A stretch of 8,566 nucleotides of DNA from a virus (IMGVR_UViG_2671180710_000015); one strand, 5' to 3'; numbered from the stretch's first letter, positions 2,465-8,566 are shown. Made by a program: numbers and translations. Notes: generated from the sequence alone by a model not told the origin.

Positions 2465-2863
2465 TCAGAACGGAATACCATCACCGTAAGGGTCATCGCC
2501 TCCCGCTGGTGGCTGATTACCCTGTGTGCCTGTGGTTTTGCGTCTGTTCCCGCCTCGGGCACTGATTACGCTGTCTGCGATAACCTGCCAGCCCTGCCGC
2601 GTTTCGCCGTTCTGGCCTGTCCACTGGCTTACCTGCATCGTGCCGGATACGCTGGCAACATCGCCTTTTTGATGTTTAGCCAGGAAGTCGGCCTGTTTGC
2701 CAAATGCGATGACCGATAACCATAACGTCGCCTGTCCGTCCTGTGCCTGGCTGCATGGCAAAGATACCGCCATACGCGCCAGCGTCATCGGTGTGCCCTT
2801 GCTGGTCTGTTTTACCTGCGGGTCGTCCACCAGCCGCCCGTAAGCGGCTATCTGTGCCGTCAT
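2465..2863 (-). CDS. ssb: Single-stranded DNA-binding protein, 132 aa
   Basis: OB-fold pattern (GRLVDDPQVKQTSKGTPMTLARMAV...LWLSVIAFGKQADFLAKHQKGDVASVSGTMQVSQW). A Gly/Pro/Gln-rich linker precedes the canonical acidic tip ending DGIPF. The start overlaps the upstream stop as ATGA. Confidence 0.9.
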   Translation of the reverse strand: MTAQIAAYGRLVDDPQVKQTSKGTPMTLARMAVSLPCSQAQDGQATLWLSVIAFGKQADFLAKHQKGDVASVSGTMQVSQWTGQNGETRQGWQVIADSVISARGGNRRKTTGTQGNQPPAGGDDPYGDGIPF

Positions 2864-3111
2864 AATTCCACCTCTCCGGTTTTAACGTTGATGGTTGTTA
2901 CCTGTTCCGCTTCGGCAATCTCCCGTTCTGTCAGCGTGGCAAAGTTTGCCGCCGCCGTGGTCATGAATGCGCTTATCAGGTCGGGATGTTCCTTCGCGTA
3001 TCCTTCCCGCGTGTGGCGGTCTATCGTTCTGATTGCCACCTTTAAGGTGTGCTCAGTCATGTCTAACGCTTTATATTTTGGCTCTGTTCTGTCTCTGCGT
3101 TTTTGGGTCAT
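2860..3111 (-). CDS. Hypothetical protein, 83 aa (alternative start at 3141 gives 93 aa)
   Basis: The ATG at 3111 has GAGAGG about 9 nt upstream and leaves all origin iterons non-coding. The 3141 start would place two iterons inside the ORF. No recognisable family. Confidence 0.55.
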   Translation of the reverse strand: MTQKRRDRTEPKYKALDMTEHTLKVAIRTIDRHTREGYAKEHPDLISAFMTTAAANFATLTEREIAEAEQVTTINVKTGEVEL

Positions 3112-3123
3112 TTCTCGCAACCT

Positions 3124-3314
3124 CTCACTTTTTCGCCTCACTTTTTCAAGCGTCTCACTTCGTCGCAGTTGGGATTTTCGGTTTTTCTATGTGTGTGTTT
3201 CATAAGTATTTTTTTACCCCCTCACTTTTGAGGATGTATACAGGTCGAAAAGTGAGGGAGAGCGGGCTAATTTTGGCCCTCTTTCTATCCCCCTCGCTTT
3301 TGCTCCTCACTTTT
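3124..3314. repeat. Putative replication origin: seven (C)CTCACTTTT iterons in two clusters flanking an A+T-rich spacer
   Basis: CTCACTTTTT occurs at 3124 and 3137, CTCACTTC at 3154 and CTCACTTTTG at 3221. An inverted AAAAGTGAG lies at 3248-3256, CTCGCTTTTG at 3293 and CTCACTTTTA at 3306. The A+T-rich stretch gtgtgtgtttcataagtattttttta lies at about 3190-3217. The element is directly 3' of the helicase gene. Confidence 0.7.
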
Positions 3315-4710
3315 ATAGCGGCGCTACATCATCCCCATCGATACGAATAACCCCATCTTTTTCCAGCTTGTACAGCCAGCGCCGGAAGTTTTTCATTTCA
3401 TACCCCAGCTTTTTCATGTCATCACGTAACAGCGGGATCGTGCACTTGTCGCCGTTCTGTGTGCGTGAACGGATGCACCCCCATAGCGCGGTATGGTTTT
3501 CCGTCTTGTTCCCTGCCTCCTCGATGCGCTCCAGTTCAACAGGAGGGCGCGGATCATCCACCACCACCAGCGACGTGATTAATTCACCGTCAGCGTCGGT
3601 AAAAAGCTCCACCACGCGTAAGTCATATGCGGCTTCTTTGAGTTCCTCCGCGTCCTTCATTTTGGTGCATGAGATAACCAGCGCTTCGCTTCCTGCGTCC
3701 TCCCTGCGTATCCGGTATTCAGCATCCAGCGAAGCACGAAATGCACTGGAACCGCGCGCGCCTTTCGTCTCATCCTTGCCGGAATGGTGAACCACCAGCA
3801 CCGTGGCCCCTGTGCGTCGTTTAAGCTCGTCACAACCACGGATAAACGCCCCCATATCACGGGAATCATTTTCATCATTCCCACCAAAGCAACGCGCCAG
3901 AGTATCCAGAATAATCATGCGTACAGGTTTACCCGTTTCCCGCTCCACCTGACGGGCAGCGATAACCATTTCATCAACATCAAGCGGGGCAGCCGGAAAG
4001 ATGGGACGGTTTACCAGATACAGATTTTTCACCTGTTCACCGTGCACAACCTCCCAGGCTTTTACACGACGCGGAACGCCGATACCGCCTTCACCAACCA
4101 CATAGAGAACCGCACCATGCGCCACCCTGCGGCCTCCCCACTGGCGGCCCGTGGAAACGTGACACGCCCACGATCCGGCAAGGAATGATTTATAGGAACC
4201 GCTCGCCCCGTATATGCTGCAAAGCGATACCGCCGGAATAATTCCCTTCACCACGTAATCAAGCTGCGTGTCGTATCCGGCAGATCCCACGCTCATTGGT
4301 AGCTTGGTTTTTCGCTGGTGGCTCAGGCTTTCCCCGCGTTCCCATGTCTCCCTAAGCCGTGGAAGCTGGTCGCTCCATTCCTCCAGCAATTCGAAATTTT
4401 CAGAAAACAGGCGCGCTTCCTGGACTCCTGCGATTGCCAGTTTCGTGGCGATGGTTAACAACTGCACTTCGTCAATATTTCCGGCACGTATCACTTTCGC
4501 CCTGTATCGCCCATCATCCACAATCTGGAGGTTATCCAGTTCGCTTAACTGATAACGCCCCAGGTAAACGGGAGGGACTGGATCGCCTGCTTTTTTGGCC
4601 TGTGCAATGATGTAGTACTCTGCAAATGAGTGAGCATTATCACCCGCAAAAATAACCGCTTCGGTGTGTTTATCTTTCGGTAACAGTTTTACGTTCGGTG
4701 CCAGTTTCAT
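3313..4710 (-). CDS. Replication initiator/helicase, RepA-like RecA-fold ATPase (AAA_25-type), 465 aa
   Basis: The central domain has Walker A-like GASGSYKS, then GAVLYVVGEGG, Walker B MIILDTL and the sensor block VLVVHHSGKDETKGARGSSAF. The roughly 150-aa N-terminal domain has no recognised fold. The roughly 80-aa C-terminal domain (..FRRWLYKLEKDGVIRI) looks winged-helix-like. No primase motifs were seen. Confidence 0.85.
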   Translation of the reverse strand: MKLAPNVKLLPKDKHTEAVIFAGDNAHSFAEYYIIAQAKKAGDPVPPVYLGRYQLSELDNLQIVDDGRYRAKVIRAGNIDEVQLLTIATKLAIAGVQEARLFSENFELLEEWSDQLPRLRETWERGESLSHQRKTKLPMSVGSAGYDTQLDYVVKGIIPAVSLCSIYGASGSYKSFLAGSWACHVSTGRQWGGRRVAHGAVLYVVGEGGIGVPRRVKAWEVVHGEQVKNLYLVNRPIFPAAPLDVDEMVIAARQVERETGKPVRMIILDTLARCFGGNDENDSRDMGAFIRGCDELKRRTGATVLVVHHSGKDETKGARGSSAFRASLDAEYRIRREDAGSEALVISCTKMKDAEELKEAAYDLRVVELFTDADGELITSLVVVDDPRPPVELERIEEAGNKTENHTALWGCIRSRTQNGDKCTIPLLRDDMKKLGYEMKNFRRWLYKLEKDGVIRIDGDDVAPL

Positions 4711-5006
4711 TTTTTACCCCTGAATCCGTTAATCATGGTTTTCAGCTTCTGGATGTTTTCCCGTGCTCTGGCGTTGCTGGTGGGCACGTTATGCGGCGCG
4801 GTCTGTACCAGAGAAAAATCACGCCGGAACTGATAAACAGGCATCACGCAATCATATTCGTAACCTTCACGGCGGTAAGTTACGCACCGTCCCGCCACGC
4901 CCTTAATCATTACCGTGCCGCCGTACTGGTCGCGGTAAATATCACCGCGCGTAAATTTAGGGTGAGTGTTGCCACTGGCAGTTAAGCCAGAATATTTAAG
5001 TTTCAT
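4707..5006 (-). CDS. Hypothetical 99-aa protein, DUF4222-like by eye
   Basis: GGAG lies upstream of the ATG at 5006, and the stop overlaps the helicase start as ATGA. The segment GDIYRDQYGGTVMIKGVAGRCVTYRREGYEYDCVMPVYQFRRDF resembles the small DUF4222 prophage proteins. The family call has low confidence. Confidence 0.55.
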   Translation of the reverse strand: MKLKYSGLTASGNTHPKFTRGDIYRDQYGGTVMIKGVAGRCVTYRREGYEYDCVMPVYQFRRDFSLVQTAPHNVPTSNARARENIQKLKTMINGFRGKK

Positions 5007-5429: not shown

Positions 5430-5501
5430 AAATTTACCTCTCTATAGTGTTTGTGGTTAGACGCCCTGCATGTGTTCCAGCACTGTGGGGCGTTGTTTTT
5501 T
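5373..5501. repeat. Copy A of a duplicated leader module (5' end of the Icd-like gene, its SD, and a terminator-like hairpin)
   Basis: It shares ordered blocks with 6081-6240 on the plus strand. The blocks are CGTTTGTGTGTGT (5385-5397), CCAT (5426-5429), TTACCTC (5434-5440), TGGTTAGA (5454-5461), and a GCCC..GGGC stem with a T-run (5462-5501). It also contains the hairpin CACACAAA-ggccg-TTTGTGTG (5374-5394). Confidence 0.7.
5462..5501 (+). terminator. Plus-strand terminator-like hairpin antisense to the leader of the leftward operon
   Basis: CGCCCUGCA (5462-5470) pairs with UGUGGGGCG (5484-5492); two of these pairs are G-U. TTGTTTTTT follows. No upstream plus-strand promoter could be identified by eye. 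Confidence 0.4.
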
Positions 5502-5502
5502 G

Positions 5503-5547
5503 GTGCAAGTCACCTTGAAATCTAGGTTACTTTTAGGTGACTTGCAC
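5503..5547. promoter_or_regulatory. Perfect 13-bp inverted repeat (candidate operator) in the divergent control region
   Basis: GTGCAAGTCACCT (5503-5515) and AGGTGACTTGCAC (5535-5547) are separated by 19 bp. The arms bracket the -10 and overlap the spacer and -35 of the proposed leftward promoter. Confidence 0.6.
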
Positions 5548-5572
5548 TTCAAGTCTTTTTTTATTTTTTTTT
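5524..5572 (-). promoter_or_regulatory. Proposed leftward operon promoter (P-left) with an UP-like A-tract
   Basis: On the minus strand, TTGAAG (5552-5547), a 17-nt spacer and TAACCT (5529-5524). It is preceded by A9-T-A7 (the complement of the T7-A-T9 tract at 5556-5572). Confidence 0.4.
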
Positions 5573-5583
5573 CTCCGTATACT
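5556..5583 (+). promoter_or_regulatory. Proposed rightward promoter for the first RHH-like gene
   Basis: TATACT at 5578-5583 lies 30 nt upstream of the ATG at 5614. The -35 position falls in the T7-A-T9 tract, so there is no consensus -35. Confidence 0.3.
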
Positions 5584-5613
5584 GAACACCACCTAACAGT
5601 AAGGAGAACAGAG

Positions 5614-5793
5614 ATGCCAACAGGTACAACCAACAACAAGTCACAACAAAAAACTGCTAGAGTACCTCTAGACGTTTTAAGCGAAATGAATTTGGTAAAA
5701 GAAGAAAACGAAACAGACGCACAATTTATCGTTACTGCCATGCGCGGCGAAATCAAACGCCGCCAGCGTCGCAAGGCCAAAGAATCAGAATAA
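5614..5793 (+). CDS. Ribbon-helix-helix-like small DNA-binding protein, 59 aa (candidate island repressor)
   Basis: AAGGAG (5601-5606) lies 7 nt before the ATG. The pattern ARVPLDVLSEMNLVKEENETDAQFIVTAMRGEIKRRQ fits a beta-strand, helix, helix (Arc/CopG-like) layout. The gene is divergent from the replication operon. Confidence 0.6.
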   Translation: MPTGTTNNKSQQKTARVPLDVLSEMNLVKEENETDAQFIVTAMRGEIKRRQRRKAKESE

Positions 5794-5802
5794 TCACTAT
5801 CA

Positions 5803-5829
5803 GCGCCGTGGTGTGAGGTACTACGGCGC
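5803..5829 (+). other. 10-bp stem hairpin 10 nt downstream of the RHH gene stop
   Basis: GCGCCGTGGT (5803-5812) pairs with ACTACGGCGC (5820-5829), including one G-U pair. The weak U-rich tail is ATTGCTTT. It could be an attenuator or an mRNA stabiliser. Confidence 0.4.
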
Positions 5830-5850
5830 ATTGCTTTACAGGGCAGTACC

Positions 5851-6078
5851 ATGACCAACAACACACTATCACCAATACAAGACACGCAAACGCAAGATGA
5901 TGAAATCATCCGGCAAAGGCAGTCAGAAGCCTGCGCCAGACTTGAGGAAGAACTAACCAGAACAAAAATACCACCACCAGCGCCGCGCTTAGTGCCACCA
6001 GAAAAATTTGCCCTTGAAGATTTTGTCGATAAATACCCACGGCGGCTTAAATCCGGCAAAAACCGACCGCCAGGATGA
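5851..6078 (+). CDS. Hypothetical 75-aa protein (weak call)
   Basis: The ORF is in the same frame as 5614-5793, separated only by one TAA and 19 sense codons. The SD is weak, rare codons are frequent and a Pro-rich centre (KIPPPAPRLVPPEK) is present. No family was recognised. Confidence 0.35.
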   Translation: MTNNTLSPIQDTQTQDDEIIRQRQSEACARLEEELTRTKIPPPAPRLVPPEKFALEDFVDKYPRRLKSGKNRPPG

Positions 6079-6080
6079 GT

Positions 6081-6240
6081 GCACAAAACCGAACTATGAA
6101 ACGGATTATTCCGTTTCCGGGGCGTTTGTGTGTGTATAAAGAGTAAGCTATGCTCTTTTATAGCCATAATCGTTACCTCAATTAATGGTTTGGTTAGAAG
6201 CCCGTTGGTGTTCATAGCGCCAGCGGGCTTTGCTTTTTGT
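6081..6240. repeat. Copy B of the duplicated leader module; on the plus strand it is a candidate sRNA / structured 3' UTR
   Basis: It carries the same ordered blocks as copy A: CGTTTGTGTGTGT (6123-6135), CCAT (6164-6167), TTACCTC (6173-6179) and TGGTTAGA (6191-6198), then a terminator. An extra perfect hairpin GAAACGGA-ttat-TCCGTTTC (6098-6117) is nested inside an outer CACAAAAC/GTTTGTG stem. Confidence 0.65.
6199..6240 (+). terminator. Rho-independent terminator, plus strand
   Basis: GCCCGUUGG (6200-6208) pairs with CCAGCGGGC (6220-6228), followed by UUUGCUUUUUGU. Confidence 0.6.
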
Positions 6241-6258
6241 GTTGATTGTGTGTAATAT
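6230..6258 (+). promoter_or_regulatory. Possible promoter of the second RHH-like gene
   Basis: TTGCTT (6230-6235), a 17-nt spacer and TAATAT (6253-6258). TGTAAT/ATTACA motifs lie at 6251-6256, 6277-6282 and 6288-6293; the last two flank the SD. Confidence 0.35.
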
Positions 6259-6297
6259 GTCACTACACATAAATACATTACATGAGGTGTAATTAAC

Positions 6298-6477
6298 ATG
6301 TCAATACACAAAAACGAAAGGCGTGGTAATCCTCCGTTCCAGTTCCGTTTAGATCCTGACTTACGGGAAAAGATGGAAAAGGCACAACAACATGACGGCG
6401 ATGATTCTCTTGCTGCCTGGATAAAGCGAATAATCCGCAAAGAATTACAGCAACGCGGCATAGAACCCAAAGGGTAA
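6298..6477 (+). CDS. Ribbon-helix-helix (Arc/CopG-like) small DNA-binding protein, 59 aa
   Basis: Hand-translated and below the track cut-off: MSIHKNERRGNPPFQFRLDPDLREKMEKAQQHDGDDSLAAWIKRIIRKELQQRGIEPKG. GAGGTG lies upstream of the ATG. It has the classic RHH layout of FQFRLDP strand, LREKMEKA helix and SLAAWIKRIIRKEL helix. Confidence 0.65.
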   Translation: MSIHKNERRGNPPFQFRLDPDLREKMEKAQQHDGDDSLAAWIKRIIRKELQQRGIEPKG

Positions 6478-6566
6478 TTACATTGCCCACCAGCCTGATA
6501 GCGGCTATCATTCCCGTGCTTATGTTTGGGATCACATAAGGCGCAGCAGGTTAATTGTTCACAAGG

Positions 6567-6592
6567 GCGTTCCGGCAACGGGGCGCTTTTTG
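6567..6592 (+). terminator. Rho-independent terminator (plus strand), convergent with the alpA 3' end
   Basis: GCGUUCCG-GCAA-CGGGGCGC is an 8-bp stem with two G-U pairs and a GNRA loop, followed by UUUUUGUU. On the minus strand no U-tract follows, so alpA read-through is possible. Confidence 0.6.
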
Positions 6593-6621
6593 TTATGTTC
6601 ATCGTGTTATGCCTCACACCA

Positions 6622-6828
6622 TTACGCAGCCGTTCCGCGTGCTTCCTGCTCACGTTCTTTCATCCATGCGATTACGTCTTCCTCATACCATCCGCGACGG
6701 CGTAAACCAACGCGAAAACCCTGCGGAAATTCTCCGGCGTTGATCATGCTTTGAAGCGTGCTGTCTGCCTTGATGTGGATAAGTTTTTTTACTTCCTGGC
6801 GAAAGATGACTTTTTTGATTGCTTCCAT
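6622..6828 (-). CDS. alpA: AlpA-family transcriptional regulator / excisionase-like HTH protein, 68 aa
   Basis: Typical Phage_AlpA pattern: FRQEVKKLIHIKADSTLQSMINAGEFPQGFRVGLRRRGWYEEDVIAWM. AAGGT lies 8 nt upstream of the ATG. Confidence 0.85.
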   Translation of the reverse strand: MEAIKKVIFRQEVKKLIHIKADSTLQSMINAGEFPQGFRVGLRRRGWYEEDVIAWMKEREQEARGTAA

Positions 6829-7324: not shown

Positions 7325-8566
7325 CTAAACGGCTCGGATACCCCTTTTACCACTGGCGAGGGTTACGCCCGTCGCCGCAGCCTCGACAAATTCGCCCCAC
7401 CAGCGCATAAGCACCACGCGTTTTTCTATGTAGTTGCTCCGGTTGTATGCCCGTCTCACTTCGTTAGTGTCGACGTGGGCAAGTGCGGCCTCGATTACGT
7501 CCGGCTCGAATCCTTCCTCGTTCGCTGCTGTACTGAATATGGCGCGTAATCCATGAGACACCAGCACGCCAGCGAACCCCATGCGTCGTAATGCTGCGTT
7601 TGCTGTCTGGCTGTTCATTGGCTGCCGTGGGTCTTTCAGACTCGGGAAAACATAATCGCGGTGGTGGCTGATTGGTTTCATGGCCTCCAGCACCGCCATA
7701 GCCTGACCGGAAAGTGGGATAACGTGATCCCTGCGCATCTTCATGCGTCCGGCGGGTATCGTCCAGCGTTGCGCGTCCAGGTCGATTTCATCCCACCGCG
7801 TTGATGACGCTTCGGCGGGACGGGTTACGGTCAGTAACTGCCATTCAATCAGTAATCTGGTCTGCCGTTCTGTTGCCGATACTGATAAAGCCTGCATAAG
7901 CTCCGGCAACTGTTCGGGGCGGATTGTTGGCATATGTTTTTTTACAGGGGAGGGGAACGCCTTACGCACATTCATAGCCGGATTGGCATCAATCAGCCCA
8001 CTGTTGGCGGCGTAATCCATTACCTCATTAACGCGCTGTAAAACCCGTTTGAGTGTTTCCAGGTTGCCGCGCTCCTTGATGGGGGTAAGCACCTCAACGA
8101 ACCTGCGAGCGGTCAGGGTGTCTATTGGGGTGTTGCCGATGAACGGGAATACATATTTATCCAGCGATCGCCAGATGTCTTTAATCGTGTTGGGGGCCAG
8201 ATTCTGGCTGATTTTCACCTGGTACCATGCCGCCGCCACATTTTCGAACGTGTTCCCTTGTCTTCGGGCCTCTGCCTCTCGTTTTTTCTTCTCATGGCCC
8301 TGCGGGTCAGTTCCGGCACTGATTAACGCTCTGTACTCGCTACGGCGTTTTCTGGCATCAGCCAGGGAAACATCATCAAGCGATCCAAAACTCAGCAATA
8401 TTCTTTTTTTGTCCGATGGCCGGTAGTAGGAAAATCGCCAGAGTTTTGATCCGGACGGTTTGACCAGGAGAAAAAGCCCTCCGCCGTCCTGTAGGGTGTA
8501 TTCCTTTTCCGCTGGTCTGGCTGCTTTGATCTGCACCGTGGTTAATGGGGGTGTTTTTCTCGCCAT
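7325..8566 (-). CDS. int: Tyrosine recombinase/integrase, P4-type (DUF4102 N-terminal arm-binding domain plus catalytic domain), 413 aa
   Basis: The N-terminus LTTVQIKAARPAEKEYTLQDGGGLFLLVKPSGSKLWRFSYY is the classic P4-like integrase signature. Catalytic motifs are present: TVTRPAEA (Arg), HGLRAIF (His-x-x-Arg) and AHVDTNEVRRAYNRSNY (His and Tyr). The ATG is at the window edge. Confidence 0.95.
   Translation of the reverse strand: MARKTPPLTTVQIKAARPAEKEYTLQDGGGLFLLVKPSGSKLWRFSYYRPSDKKRILLSFGSLDDVSLADARKRRSEYRALISAGTDPQGHEKKKREAEARRQGNTFENVAAAWYQVKISQNLAPNTIKDIWRSLDKYVFPFIGNTPIDTLTARRFVEVLTPIKERGNLETLKRVLQRVNEVMDYAANSGLIDANPAMNVRKAFPSPVKKHMPTIRPEQLPELMQALSVSATERQTRLLIEWQLLTVTRPAEASSTRWDEIDLDAQRWTIPAGRMKMRRDHVIPLSGQAMAVLEAMKPISHHRDYVFPSLKDPRQPMNSQTANAALRRMGFAGVLVSHGLRAIFSTAANEEGFEPDVIEAALAHVDTNEVRRAYNRSNYIEKRVVLMRWWGEFVEAAATGVTLASGKRGIRAV

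Follow-up and report, generated by a model that had tools for sequence, protein, structure and literature searches.

A putative iteron-type replication origin directly downstream of the helicase gene in an Escherichia coli phage-inducible chromosomal island

Results

The DNA analysed here, which we refer to as the window, is a stretch of 8,566 nt from the virus IMGVR_UViG_2671180710_000015, and all coordinates and strands given below refer to this whole stretch. Our subject is the gap directly 3' of a gene for a 465-residue helicase (3313-4710, minus strand), which we consider to be the probable replication origin of a phage-inducible chromosomal island (PICI). This gap, which extends from the helicase stop codon (3313-3315) to the start codon, at 3111, of the next gene, holds an array of short repeats, or iterons.

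A direct repeat search found five exact copies of CTCACTTTT, four on the plus strand (at 3124, 3137, 3221 and 3306) and one on the minus strand (3248-3256), together with a copy with one mismatch at 3293 (CTCGCTTTT) and a copy at 3154 in which the T-tail is altered and the core is intact (CTCACTTCG). The preliminary description of this DNA, which had reported seven copies in some 190 bp with one of them inverted, was therefore borne out; the seven occupy 191 bp (span 3123-3314). No copy of CTCACTTTT with zero or one mismatch was found outside 3123-3314 in all 8,566 nt. Six copies with at most one mismatch fall within 200 bp, as against no more than two in any 200 bp of 300 dinucleotide-preserving shuffles, and the clustering of the iterons is non-random.

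Taken as 10-mers, the iterons have start-to-start spacings of 13, 17, 67, 28, 44 and 13. On the side of the downstream gene, iterons 1 (3123-3132, TCTCACTTTT) and 2 (3136-3145, CCTCACTTTT) belong to a distal direct array and are followed by iteron 3 (3153-3162, TCTCACTTCG), the copy with the altered T-tail, all three being on the plus strand. Iteron 4 (3220-3229, plus strand, CCTCACTTTT) and iteron 5 (3248-3257, CCTCACTTTT on the minus strand), the sole inverted copy, are the left and right arms of an inverted pair, and the plus-strand iterons 6 (3292-3301, CCTCGCTTTT, one mismatch) and 7 (3305-3314, CCTCACTTTT) make up a stop-proximal array. As had been noted before, the last copy (3306-3314) runs into the helicase stop codon, a TAA which reads TTA on the plus strand. 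The repeats do flank an A+T-rich stretch, as also described previously, but what had been taken for a single cluster at 3221-3314 is really two modules, the inverted pair (3220-3257) and the stop-proximal direct pair (3292-3314). The order of the parts is thus a distal array of three to five direct iterons adjoining the downstream gene, an A+T-rich tract of about 45 bp, the inverted pair, and the direct pair overlapping the stop codon.

Four more copies, degenerate and recognised by their position, are suggested by alignment with relatives in which the array is better preserved; they would lie at about 3112-3121, 3163-3172, 3243-3247 and 3278-3289. The possible copy at 3112-3121 (plus strand, TTCTCGCAAC) overlaps the ribosome-binding region of the downstream gene and is the positional homologue of a well-kept CATTCCCCACCA copy in four E. 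coli relatives (L003-L006), although it is not detected as a repeat in the window itself.

The A+T-rich tract (3170-3218; 65-80% A+T), with three iterons to its left and four to its right, is locally the least stable duplex and a candidate unwinding region. Here, 20-mers starting at 3195-3200 contain 75-80% A+T, and the lowest stability of any 20-mer in the region corresponds to a nearest-neighbour free energy of -20.7 kcal/mol, compared with a window mean of -26.9 +/- 2.8. An A-rich tract occupies the equivalent place in relatives from E. coli and Xenorhabdus. Between the inverted iterons lies a perfect 8-bp palindrome, TGTATACA (3235-3242), and it is this palindrome, not the long A+T tract, that the opposed pair flanks; in relatives, two tandem inverted copies stand at this place. 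The 11-nt arms of the pair (3219-3229 and 3248-3258) are 100% complementary and could form a hairpin in single-stranded DNA (-9.7 kcal/mol, z = -3.1).

Motif scanning of 3100-3330 detected no DnaA box (allowing up to one mismatch), no integration host factor (IHF) consensus and no GATC. The DnaA boxes or IHF sites that accompany the iterons in DnaA-dependent origins of theta plasmids are thus lacking. Scans of 2900-3500 returned no sigma-70-like promoter and, as regards terminators, one terminator-like site, on the non-transcribed strand and at chance level, and no match was obtained in Rfam and tRNA scans of the whole window. Since neither a sigma-70-like promoter nor a convincing terminator is predicted in the gap, transcription of the downstream genes probably continues from the helicase gene.

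The first of these downstream genes (2860-3111, minus strand; phrog_1231) encodes 83 residues, and there is good reason to place its start at the ATG at 3111 instead of 3141, as had been argued from the layout: the Prokaryotic Genome Annotation Pipeline (PGAP) uses the equivalent ATG in eight relatives, the product matches phrog_1231 over residues 1-82 of 83, from the first residue, and the alternative GTG at 3141 is a spurious start, read from the CAC inside iteron 2.

The conservation of the array was studied in 78 loci, comprising nine from E. coli (the window and its homologues L001-L008) and 69 in which the helicase frame is intact up to its stop; the latter come from 80 further loci found in a scan of species-representative genomes, and more than 25 genera are represented in all. 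The intergenic regions of the eight E. coli homologues are 70-77% identical and keep the architecture. In five of the eight, every copy is CCCACTTTT instead of CTCACTTTT, a concerted change that sets CTCAC (the window, L001, L002 and L008) against CCCAC (L003-L007). An array following a shared plan stands after the helicase stop in 76 of the 78 loci, with the shared layout found in E. coli, Salmonella, Xenorhabdus, Pectobacterium, Serratia, Morganella, Pantoea, Kosakonia and others, and in an Oceanospirillaceae genome. The plan begins with two to four direct copies at or just past the stop, the first iteron of most relatives being at the stop codon or a few bases away, continues with one (sometimes two) opposed copies about 55-60 bp downstream and a direct copy at about +85-90, and ends with three to five direct copies at about +145-200. 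The copies are degenerate in three loci of the Xenorhabdus type (L014, L022 and L033). Two loci, L075 and L079, have no array, and toxin-antitoxin-type genes or unrelated DNA directly follow the stop, with one iteron kept in L075. A conserved helicase without repeats, which the preliminary description had named as evidence that would speak against an origin, was not encountered in this collection, because both of these loci are read as truncated remnants.

A core of the form (T/C)(G/A)TATATA(C) is found between the inverted iterons in nearly all of the 76 iteron-bearing loci, whatever their iteron class. In this comparison, the TATA-type palindrome enclosed by the inverted iterons, and not the long A+T tract, is the most conserved element apart from the iterons, and the inverted pair around TGTATACA is the most conserved core of the origin. 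The palindrome is a candidate nucleation point for melting and helicase loading.

The candidate iteron binder put forward at the outset was the C-terminal domain of the helicase, with the suggestion that iterons and domain might be found to co-vary in related islands. An AlphaFold model of the C-terminal 81 residues has the order helix-strand-helix-helix-beta-hairpin, with a predicted local distance difference test score (pLDDT) of about 90 over residues 404-465 (3316-3501, minus strand), and Foldseek matched it almost only to winged-helix domains, chiefly those of DNA-binding regulators (DtxR/IdeR, LexA, Fur, MarR, ArsR and IclR). Residue 441, an Asn encoded by AAC at 3388-3390, caps the third helix of the model (residues 442-451), which would be the recognition helix (NFRRWLYKLEK, residues 441-451; 3358-3390, minus strand).

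The sequence at the start of this helix follows the iteron core closely. Proteins with K-N-[FLM]xRW go with GTGAG in 25 of 27 loci, those with K-H-F with GTGGG in 13 of 14, and those with K-K-F with GTGGG(GG) in 25 of 29, the remainder being weak, while R-K-S-F is found with GTGCG(GC), core GTGCGGC, in all eight cases. Four further loci were fetched as prospective tests of this rule: an Asn protein from Salmonella has GTGAG iterons and the first iteron of a primase-fused relative with His is GTGGG, both as predicted; a Yokenella protein with R-K-G-F revealed a fifth class, GTGCGCG, with the layout unchanged; and the fourth locus, L094, has an Asn protein with a mixed array, mostly GTGAG. The Yokenella locus (Yokenella regensburgei, L092, positions 2101-2330), whose iterons are AAGTGCGCG, is one residue and two bases away from the R-K-S-F/GTGCGGC class. 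The predicted fold and the co-variation, seen in five classes and specific to the recognition helix, indicate that the putative C-terminal winged helix of the helicase reads the repeats. Asn opposite A and His opposite G fit common side-chain-to-base preferences, and we infer that Asn441 could stand opposite the A of GTGAG, and His opposite the G of GTGGG.

Of the 471 columns of the helicase alignment, a single one, that of residue 441 (Asn or His), separates the two iteron classes within the E. coli set. Similarity in the N-terminal domain, in the core or even in the winged helix as a whole does not follow the class: the core of L005 (His) is 99% identical to that of the window (Asn), the N-terminus and core of L008 (Asn) are 98-99% identical to those of L004 and L006 (His), and the whole winged helix of L008 is nearest to that of L005, which has the opposite class. 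The sliding identity between the window and L005 falls to 52-83% between about 3040 and 3520, with 92-98% on both sides, so that the winged helix and the origin behave as one exchangeable "specificity cassette" (3040-3520), within which the origin is flanked by the sequence coding for the winged helix and by the 5' end of the next gene.

Other products of the island were considered as binders and rejected. None of the columns of the DUF4222 protein separates the classes, and the protein is conserved to about 95% in the island EcCICFT073, where the iterons are unrelated. A 73%-identical copy of the 83-residue phrog_1231 protein also follows the unrelated EcCICFT073 iterons, and the protein has no homologue in the 80 loci from other genera. 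The small terminase TerS belongs to a packaging block that the window shares, at 97.5% identity, with L005, a locus of the other iteron class. Finally, as regards the N-terminal domain of the helicase, L007 is 89% identical there and has the other class, and EcCICFT073 shares the domain and has unrelated iterons.

The remainder of the helicase consists of an N-terminal alpha/beta domain (residues 1 to about 135), a core at residues 147-385, approximately, and a flexible linker with low pLDDT around residues 385-403, which leads to the winged helix. The core belongs to Pfam AAA_25 (E = 1e-42) and the protein to phrog_2850. Its sole solved sequence relative is RepA of plasmid RSF1010 (1G8Y; E = 8e-5), which was reached by a profile search, a phmmer search of the helicase against the PDB having found nothing. 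NCBIfam gave only sub-threshold RadA matches, and the search of the PDB with a full-length model, which is multi-domain and has a low-pLDDT core, was uninformative, its sole hint being a RadA match, again a RecA fold. The D5_N, DUF5906 and Pox_D5 domains are absent from the helicase, unlike the initiator of EcCICFT073. The motor is thus of the RecA-fold, RSF1010-RepA-like, superfamily 4 (SF4) type, unlike the characterised PICI Reps, which are of SF3 (Rep1 and PriRep5) or SF6 (Rep2) (PMC9371898). No PICI Rep of the SF4 type was found in our literature search. By analogy with SF4 helicases, translocation is predicted to be 5'->3' rather than 3'->5', and mechanistic conclusions drawn from the SF3 and SF6 Reps of Staphylococcus aureus pathogenicity islands (SaPIs) may not transfer directly.

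The N-terminal domain of the helicase (residues 1-135; 4306-4710, minus strand), predicted with pLDDT of about 75-93, is modular. It is 43% identical over about 140 residues to the otherwise unrelated P4-type Pri-Rep of EcCICFT073, and two divergent types, 45% identical, are exchanged among the E. coli helicases; it may recruit a primase or a partner protein. Some relatives (P0120 and L075) have a Zn-ribbon/Toprim primase in place of this domain, and Pfam and PHROG searches found neither a primase gene nor a RepC gene in the window.

The genes of the window that were identified by Pfam and PHROG are all on the minus strand: a tyrosine integrase (7325-8566), a weak match to an AlpA-like helix-turn-helix protein (6622-6828), DUF4222 (4707-5006), the helicase, a single-stranded DNA-binding protein (SSB; 2465-2863) two genes downstream of the helicase, PerC (open reading frame 2182-2562), TerS and a capsid gene. 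The window therefore presents the traits of Gram-negative PICIs, which are islands of about 8-12 kb, namely an integrase, a single direction of transcription, an alpA-type regulator, a replication module, packaging genes and similarity to listed PICIs, and is 92-94% identical to E. coli islands, the best-matching of which lies between tRNA-Pro/yejM and yejO. The closest published PICI is EcCI11128, whose locus in E. coli O111:H- 11128 matches with a nucleotide identity of 93% over 76% of the window length; both EcCI11128 and EcCIRM12579 are listed as PICIs in Table S1 of Fillol-Salom et al. 2018 (PMC6092414). The possibility that the island is EcCIEDL933 was rejected, since EcCIEDL933 lies elsewhere in the chromosome and carries terL.

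The similarity is not uniform along the island. The segment 2152-4321, which includes PerC, SSB, the 83-residue gene, the origin and the helicase from about residue 130, is 96.8% identical to an O157:H7 island (L001) located between roxA and phoQ, and the identity in the origin block is 99.7%. The roxA(ycfD)-phoQ interval is the attachment site given for EcCIRM12579 (PMC6092414). The packaging block (378-2182) is the one, already mentioned, that is 97.5% identical in an EcCI11128-type island (L005), and the helicase N-terminus, at about 4321-4634, is of the type of L007, with breakpoints near 2152-2182 and near 4321. Compared with EcCI11128-type and EcCIRM12579-type islands, the window is a recombinant of both types, a mosaic, integrase-bearing E. 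coli PICI. As many as 368 complete E. coli genomes carry the 351 bp around the repeats with an identity of 99% or more.

Discussion

We consider it very probable (about 85%) that positions 3112-3315 constitute the vegetative replication origin of a PICI and that the adjacent 465-residue helicase is its initiator. The features that argue for this were computed directly: the repeats and their clustering, a layout common to many genera, the concerted change of all copies, the co-variation between iteron core and recognition helix, and the prediction of a winged-helix fold. They fall into a known design. The origins of SaPIs lie directly 3' of rep and consist of 6-12 short iterons, the A+T-rich region being close to the middle; recognition of the iterons falls to a winged helix in the C-terminal domain of Rep, and the Reps are self-loading helicases of superfamily 3 or 6 that need no separate loader (PMC9371898). 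An iteron origin layout has also been described for E. coli PICIs, with the iteron sequences of several of them given in Fig. 2a, and pri-rep-ori of EcCICFT073 has been functionally tested (PMC6092414); iterons are not mentioned in the supplements of that paper, and nothing on origins appears in the preprint on cf-PICIs (10.1101/2022.09.08.507074). The likeness to SaPI and PICI origins that had been pointed out for this locus, in which an A+T-rich region directly 3' of rep is flanked by iterons, therefore stands (PMC9371898, PMC6092414), and the iteron count, seven clear copies plus up to four degenerate ones, is within the six-to-twelve range of those origins (PMC9371898). That there should be an origin is to be expected, since every PICI needs one and the design has been published for islands of Gram-positive bacteria and E. 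coli. What the present analysis adds is the anatomy at base level, the TATA-type core between opposed iterons, the rule that relates winged helix and iteron core, and the SF4-type motor. The parts of the origin are placed to the base in an island that is very common in E. coli and O157:H7.

Several points weigh against this interpretation or against parts of it. Our search found no experiment on the replicon of the window, and the functional test available for E. coli concerns EcCICFT073, the initiator of which is a P4-type primase/SF3 helicase with different iterons. Most copies in the window have the same orientation on both sides of the A+T tract, whereas the iterons of SaPI origins are opposed across the A+T region, with at least two per side (PMC9371898). 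The E-values of the Foldseek matches are weak (0.05-0.15, with probabilities of 0.9-0.99), the domain being small. With codon 441 no more than about 75 bp away from the first iteron, linkage by itself should produce a degree of co-inheritance, and seven columns of the adjacent 83-residue protein also separate the iteron classes, as linkage would lead one to expect. Against linkage as the whole explanation, helicase residues nearer to the origin (451, 456 and 463) vary independently of the class. The independent events are also few, about five classes and at least two switches within E. coli, because many of the 78 loci are related by descent. One locus, L094, combines an Asn helix with a mixed array, mostly GTGAG plus two GTGGGG copies; its origin may have undergone a recent internal recombination, or its binder may tolerate both cores. 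In this metagenome contig (2116-2330), the inverted copy is among the GTGGGG ones.

The resemblance to characterised systems is in each case partial. With the origins of SaPIs and other Gram-positive PICIs (SaPI1 Rep1, SaPI5 PriRep5 and SaPIbov1-type Rep2), the window shares the position 3' of rep, the number of iterons, a central A+T region, some inversion and a predicted C-terminal winged helix. It departs from them in the SF4-type motor, as opposed to SF3 or SF6, in the sequence of the iterons, and in their orientation, most copies to the left and right of the A+T tract being direct and just one opposed pair enclosing a TATA-type palindrome. The replication module of EcCICFT073 occupies the same slot, with DUF4222, the initiator, an intergenic origin of about 200-290 bp, an 83/85-residue gene, SSB and PerC in the same places, and follows the same iteron-plus-A+T-rich design. 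The initiators share only the N-terminal 140 residues or so, that of EcCICFT073 being a 584-residue P4-family primase with a D5-type SF3 helicase, and its iterons (YRTCTACC/GGTAGAYAG) are unrelated to CTCACTTTT. Among its GGTAGAYAG iterons, the EcCICFT073 origin (L009, 3996-4285) also has TTATCCACT, which deviates from the DnaA-box consensus by a single mismatch; the window origin does not have such a box.

Two replicons outside the PICIs are of interest for comparison. The IncQ plasmid RSF1010 supplies, in RepA, the closest solved relative of the helicase core, and its oriV has iterons beside an A+T-rich region. In RSF1010, iteron binding and origin opening are carried out by a separate protein, RepC, and priming by RepB', whereas in the window a putative winged helix is fused to the helicase. 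The alpha protein of phage P4 is the initiator-helicase of a satellite, with a C-terminal winged-helix domain that binds short iterons; it is a primase plus SF3 helicase, and its iteron clusters, ori and crr, are kilobases apart. Its sequence has no similarity to the helicase core of the window. P4 has been discussed as a comparator of PICIs (PMC6092414).

The repeats could instead be mainly an operator array, through which the winged helix of the helicase or some other regulator controls the downstream operon (the 83-residue gene, SSB, PerC and the packaging genes). The distal copies reach up to, or into, the Shine-Dalgarno sequence and the start codon of the gene at 3111, and genes that are probably read through from the helicase gene could be modulated by a bound protein. 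We regard this as unlikely: the co-varying binder is fused to a replicative-helicase motor, and in its A+T tract, its opposed pair and its place 3' of rep the array agrees with tested PICI origins (PMC6092414, PMC9371898). Regulation would add to the function of an origin and not replace it, and a regulatory side-role of the distal copies that abut the ribosome-binding site of the next gene is possible.

Recognition of the repeats by the small terminase of the island, which would make them its packaging (pac) site, is very improbable. Pac sites are often short repeated motifs and the island encodes its own TerS, but the iteron class does not follow TerS, as the window (CTCAC) and L005 (CCCAC) share nearly the same packaging block, and the arrays are present whatever lies downstream, be it ProQ/FinO genes (L008) or a prohead protease-capsid fusion gene (L006 and L092). 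Moreover, a better pac candidate exists in another family of repeats, TGTAACTTTT, which is found within terS and directly before it. This family has five exact copies and one with a single mismatch, in both orientations, at 1345-1417 and 1599-1620 (0.68 expected); four of these fall within the 5' part of terS, and the other two closely precede its likely start codon (ATG at about 1575). The TGTAACTTTT copies share the tail ACTTTT with the origin iterons and are a candidate pac site or regulator-binding array. It is still harder to believe that the inverted pair acts as an RNA or DNA hairpin, involved in transcript stability or termination, with the other copies incidental. The perfectly complementary arms and their folding energy would suit such an element, and the concerted T-to-C change in both arms keeps the pairing, but the identical substitution is found in all direct copies, which cannot pair. 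In addition, no T-run follows the hairpin on the transcribed (minus) strand, no Rfam family matches, and the loop of about 18 nt holds a palindrome that is conserved at the DNA level.

For the replication origin that we favour, a mechanism can be proposed in which replication itself, binding, the melting site, self-loading, polarity and priming are all inferred. The 465-residue protein would be initiator and replicative helicase in one. Its C-terminal winged helix, tethered by the linker, would bind the (C)CTCACTTTT copies (AAAAGTGAG on the coding strand), with the residues at the start of the recognition helix reading the central bases of the iteron. Binding to the array would concentrate helicase subunits at the origin, and the opposed pair would place two assemblies around the TATA-type core TGTATACA and the A+T tract. 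The duplex would open there, and RepA-like hexamers (SF4, RecA-fold) would load themselves onto the single strands, with neither DnaA nor a separate loader. The SSB of the island could coat the unwound strands and stabilise the bubble, and priming would presumably be left to the host DnaG. After induction by a helper phage and excision, this would result in amplification of the island, followed by packaging.

A wider proposal, to which we give somewhat less than even odds, is that the SF4 helicase with its C-terminal winged helix is a self-loading PICI initiator that represents a fourth type of PICI Rep motor, of opposite polarity, in which one to three residues of the recognition helix set the specificity, so that N441H would retarget the protein from GTGAG to GTGGG, and in which a cassette of about 480 bp is swapped between islands. 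If this were true, the swapping of the winged-helix-plus-origin cassette (about 3040-3520) could give rise to replicon specificity groups, with several PICIs co-resident in one cell. The recognition rule could also help in designing orthogonal replicons and in foreseeing which islands share initiators with one another and which avoid them.

Additional observations

Two other features of the island are worth recording. The open reading frame at 5457-6653 (minus strand; 398 residues, GTG start), the longest in its stretch, has a Cys/Ser/Arg-rich, junk-like translation and looks spurious. No Pfam, PHROG or PADLOC match was found for it, the corresponding region of relatives has only small hypothetical genes and a YlcI/YnfO gene, and its AT skew is strongly positive.

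The window is also rich in exact Chi octamers (GCTGGTGG), with 11 in 8.5 kb compared with 0.27 expected in shuffles (maximum 3), a density about six times as high as the average of the E. coli genome. Eight of the 11 are on the minus strand, the coding strand of the island (744, 2364, 2827, 3564, 3792, 5974, 6487 and 7397), and the others on the plus strand (2505, 4314 and 4776). These sites may shield linear DNA of the island, whether replicating or packaged, from RecBCD.

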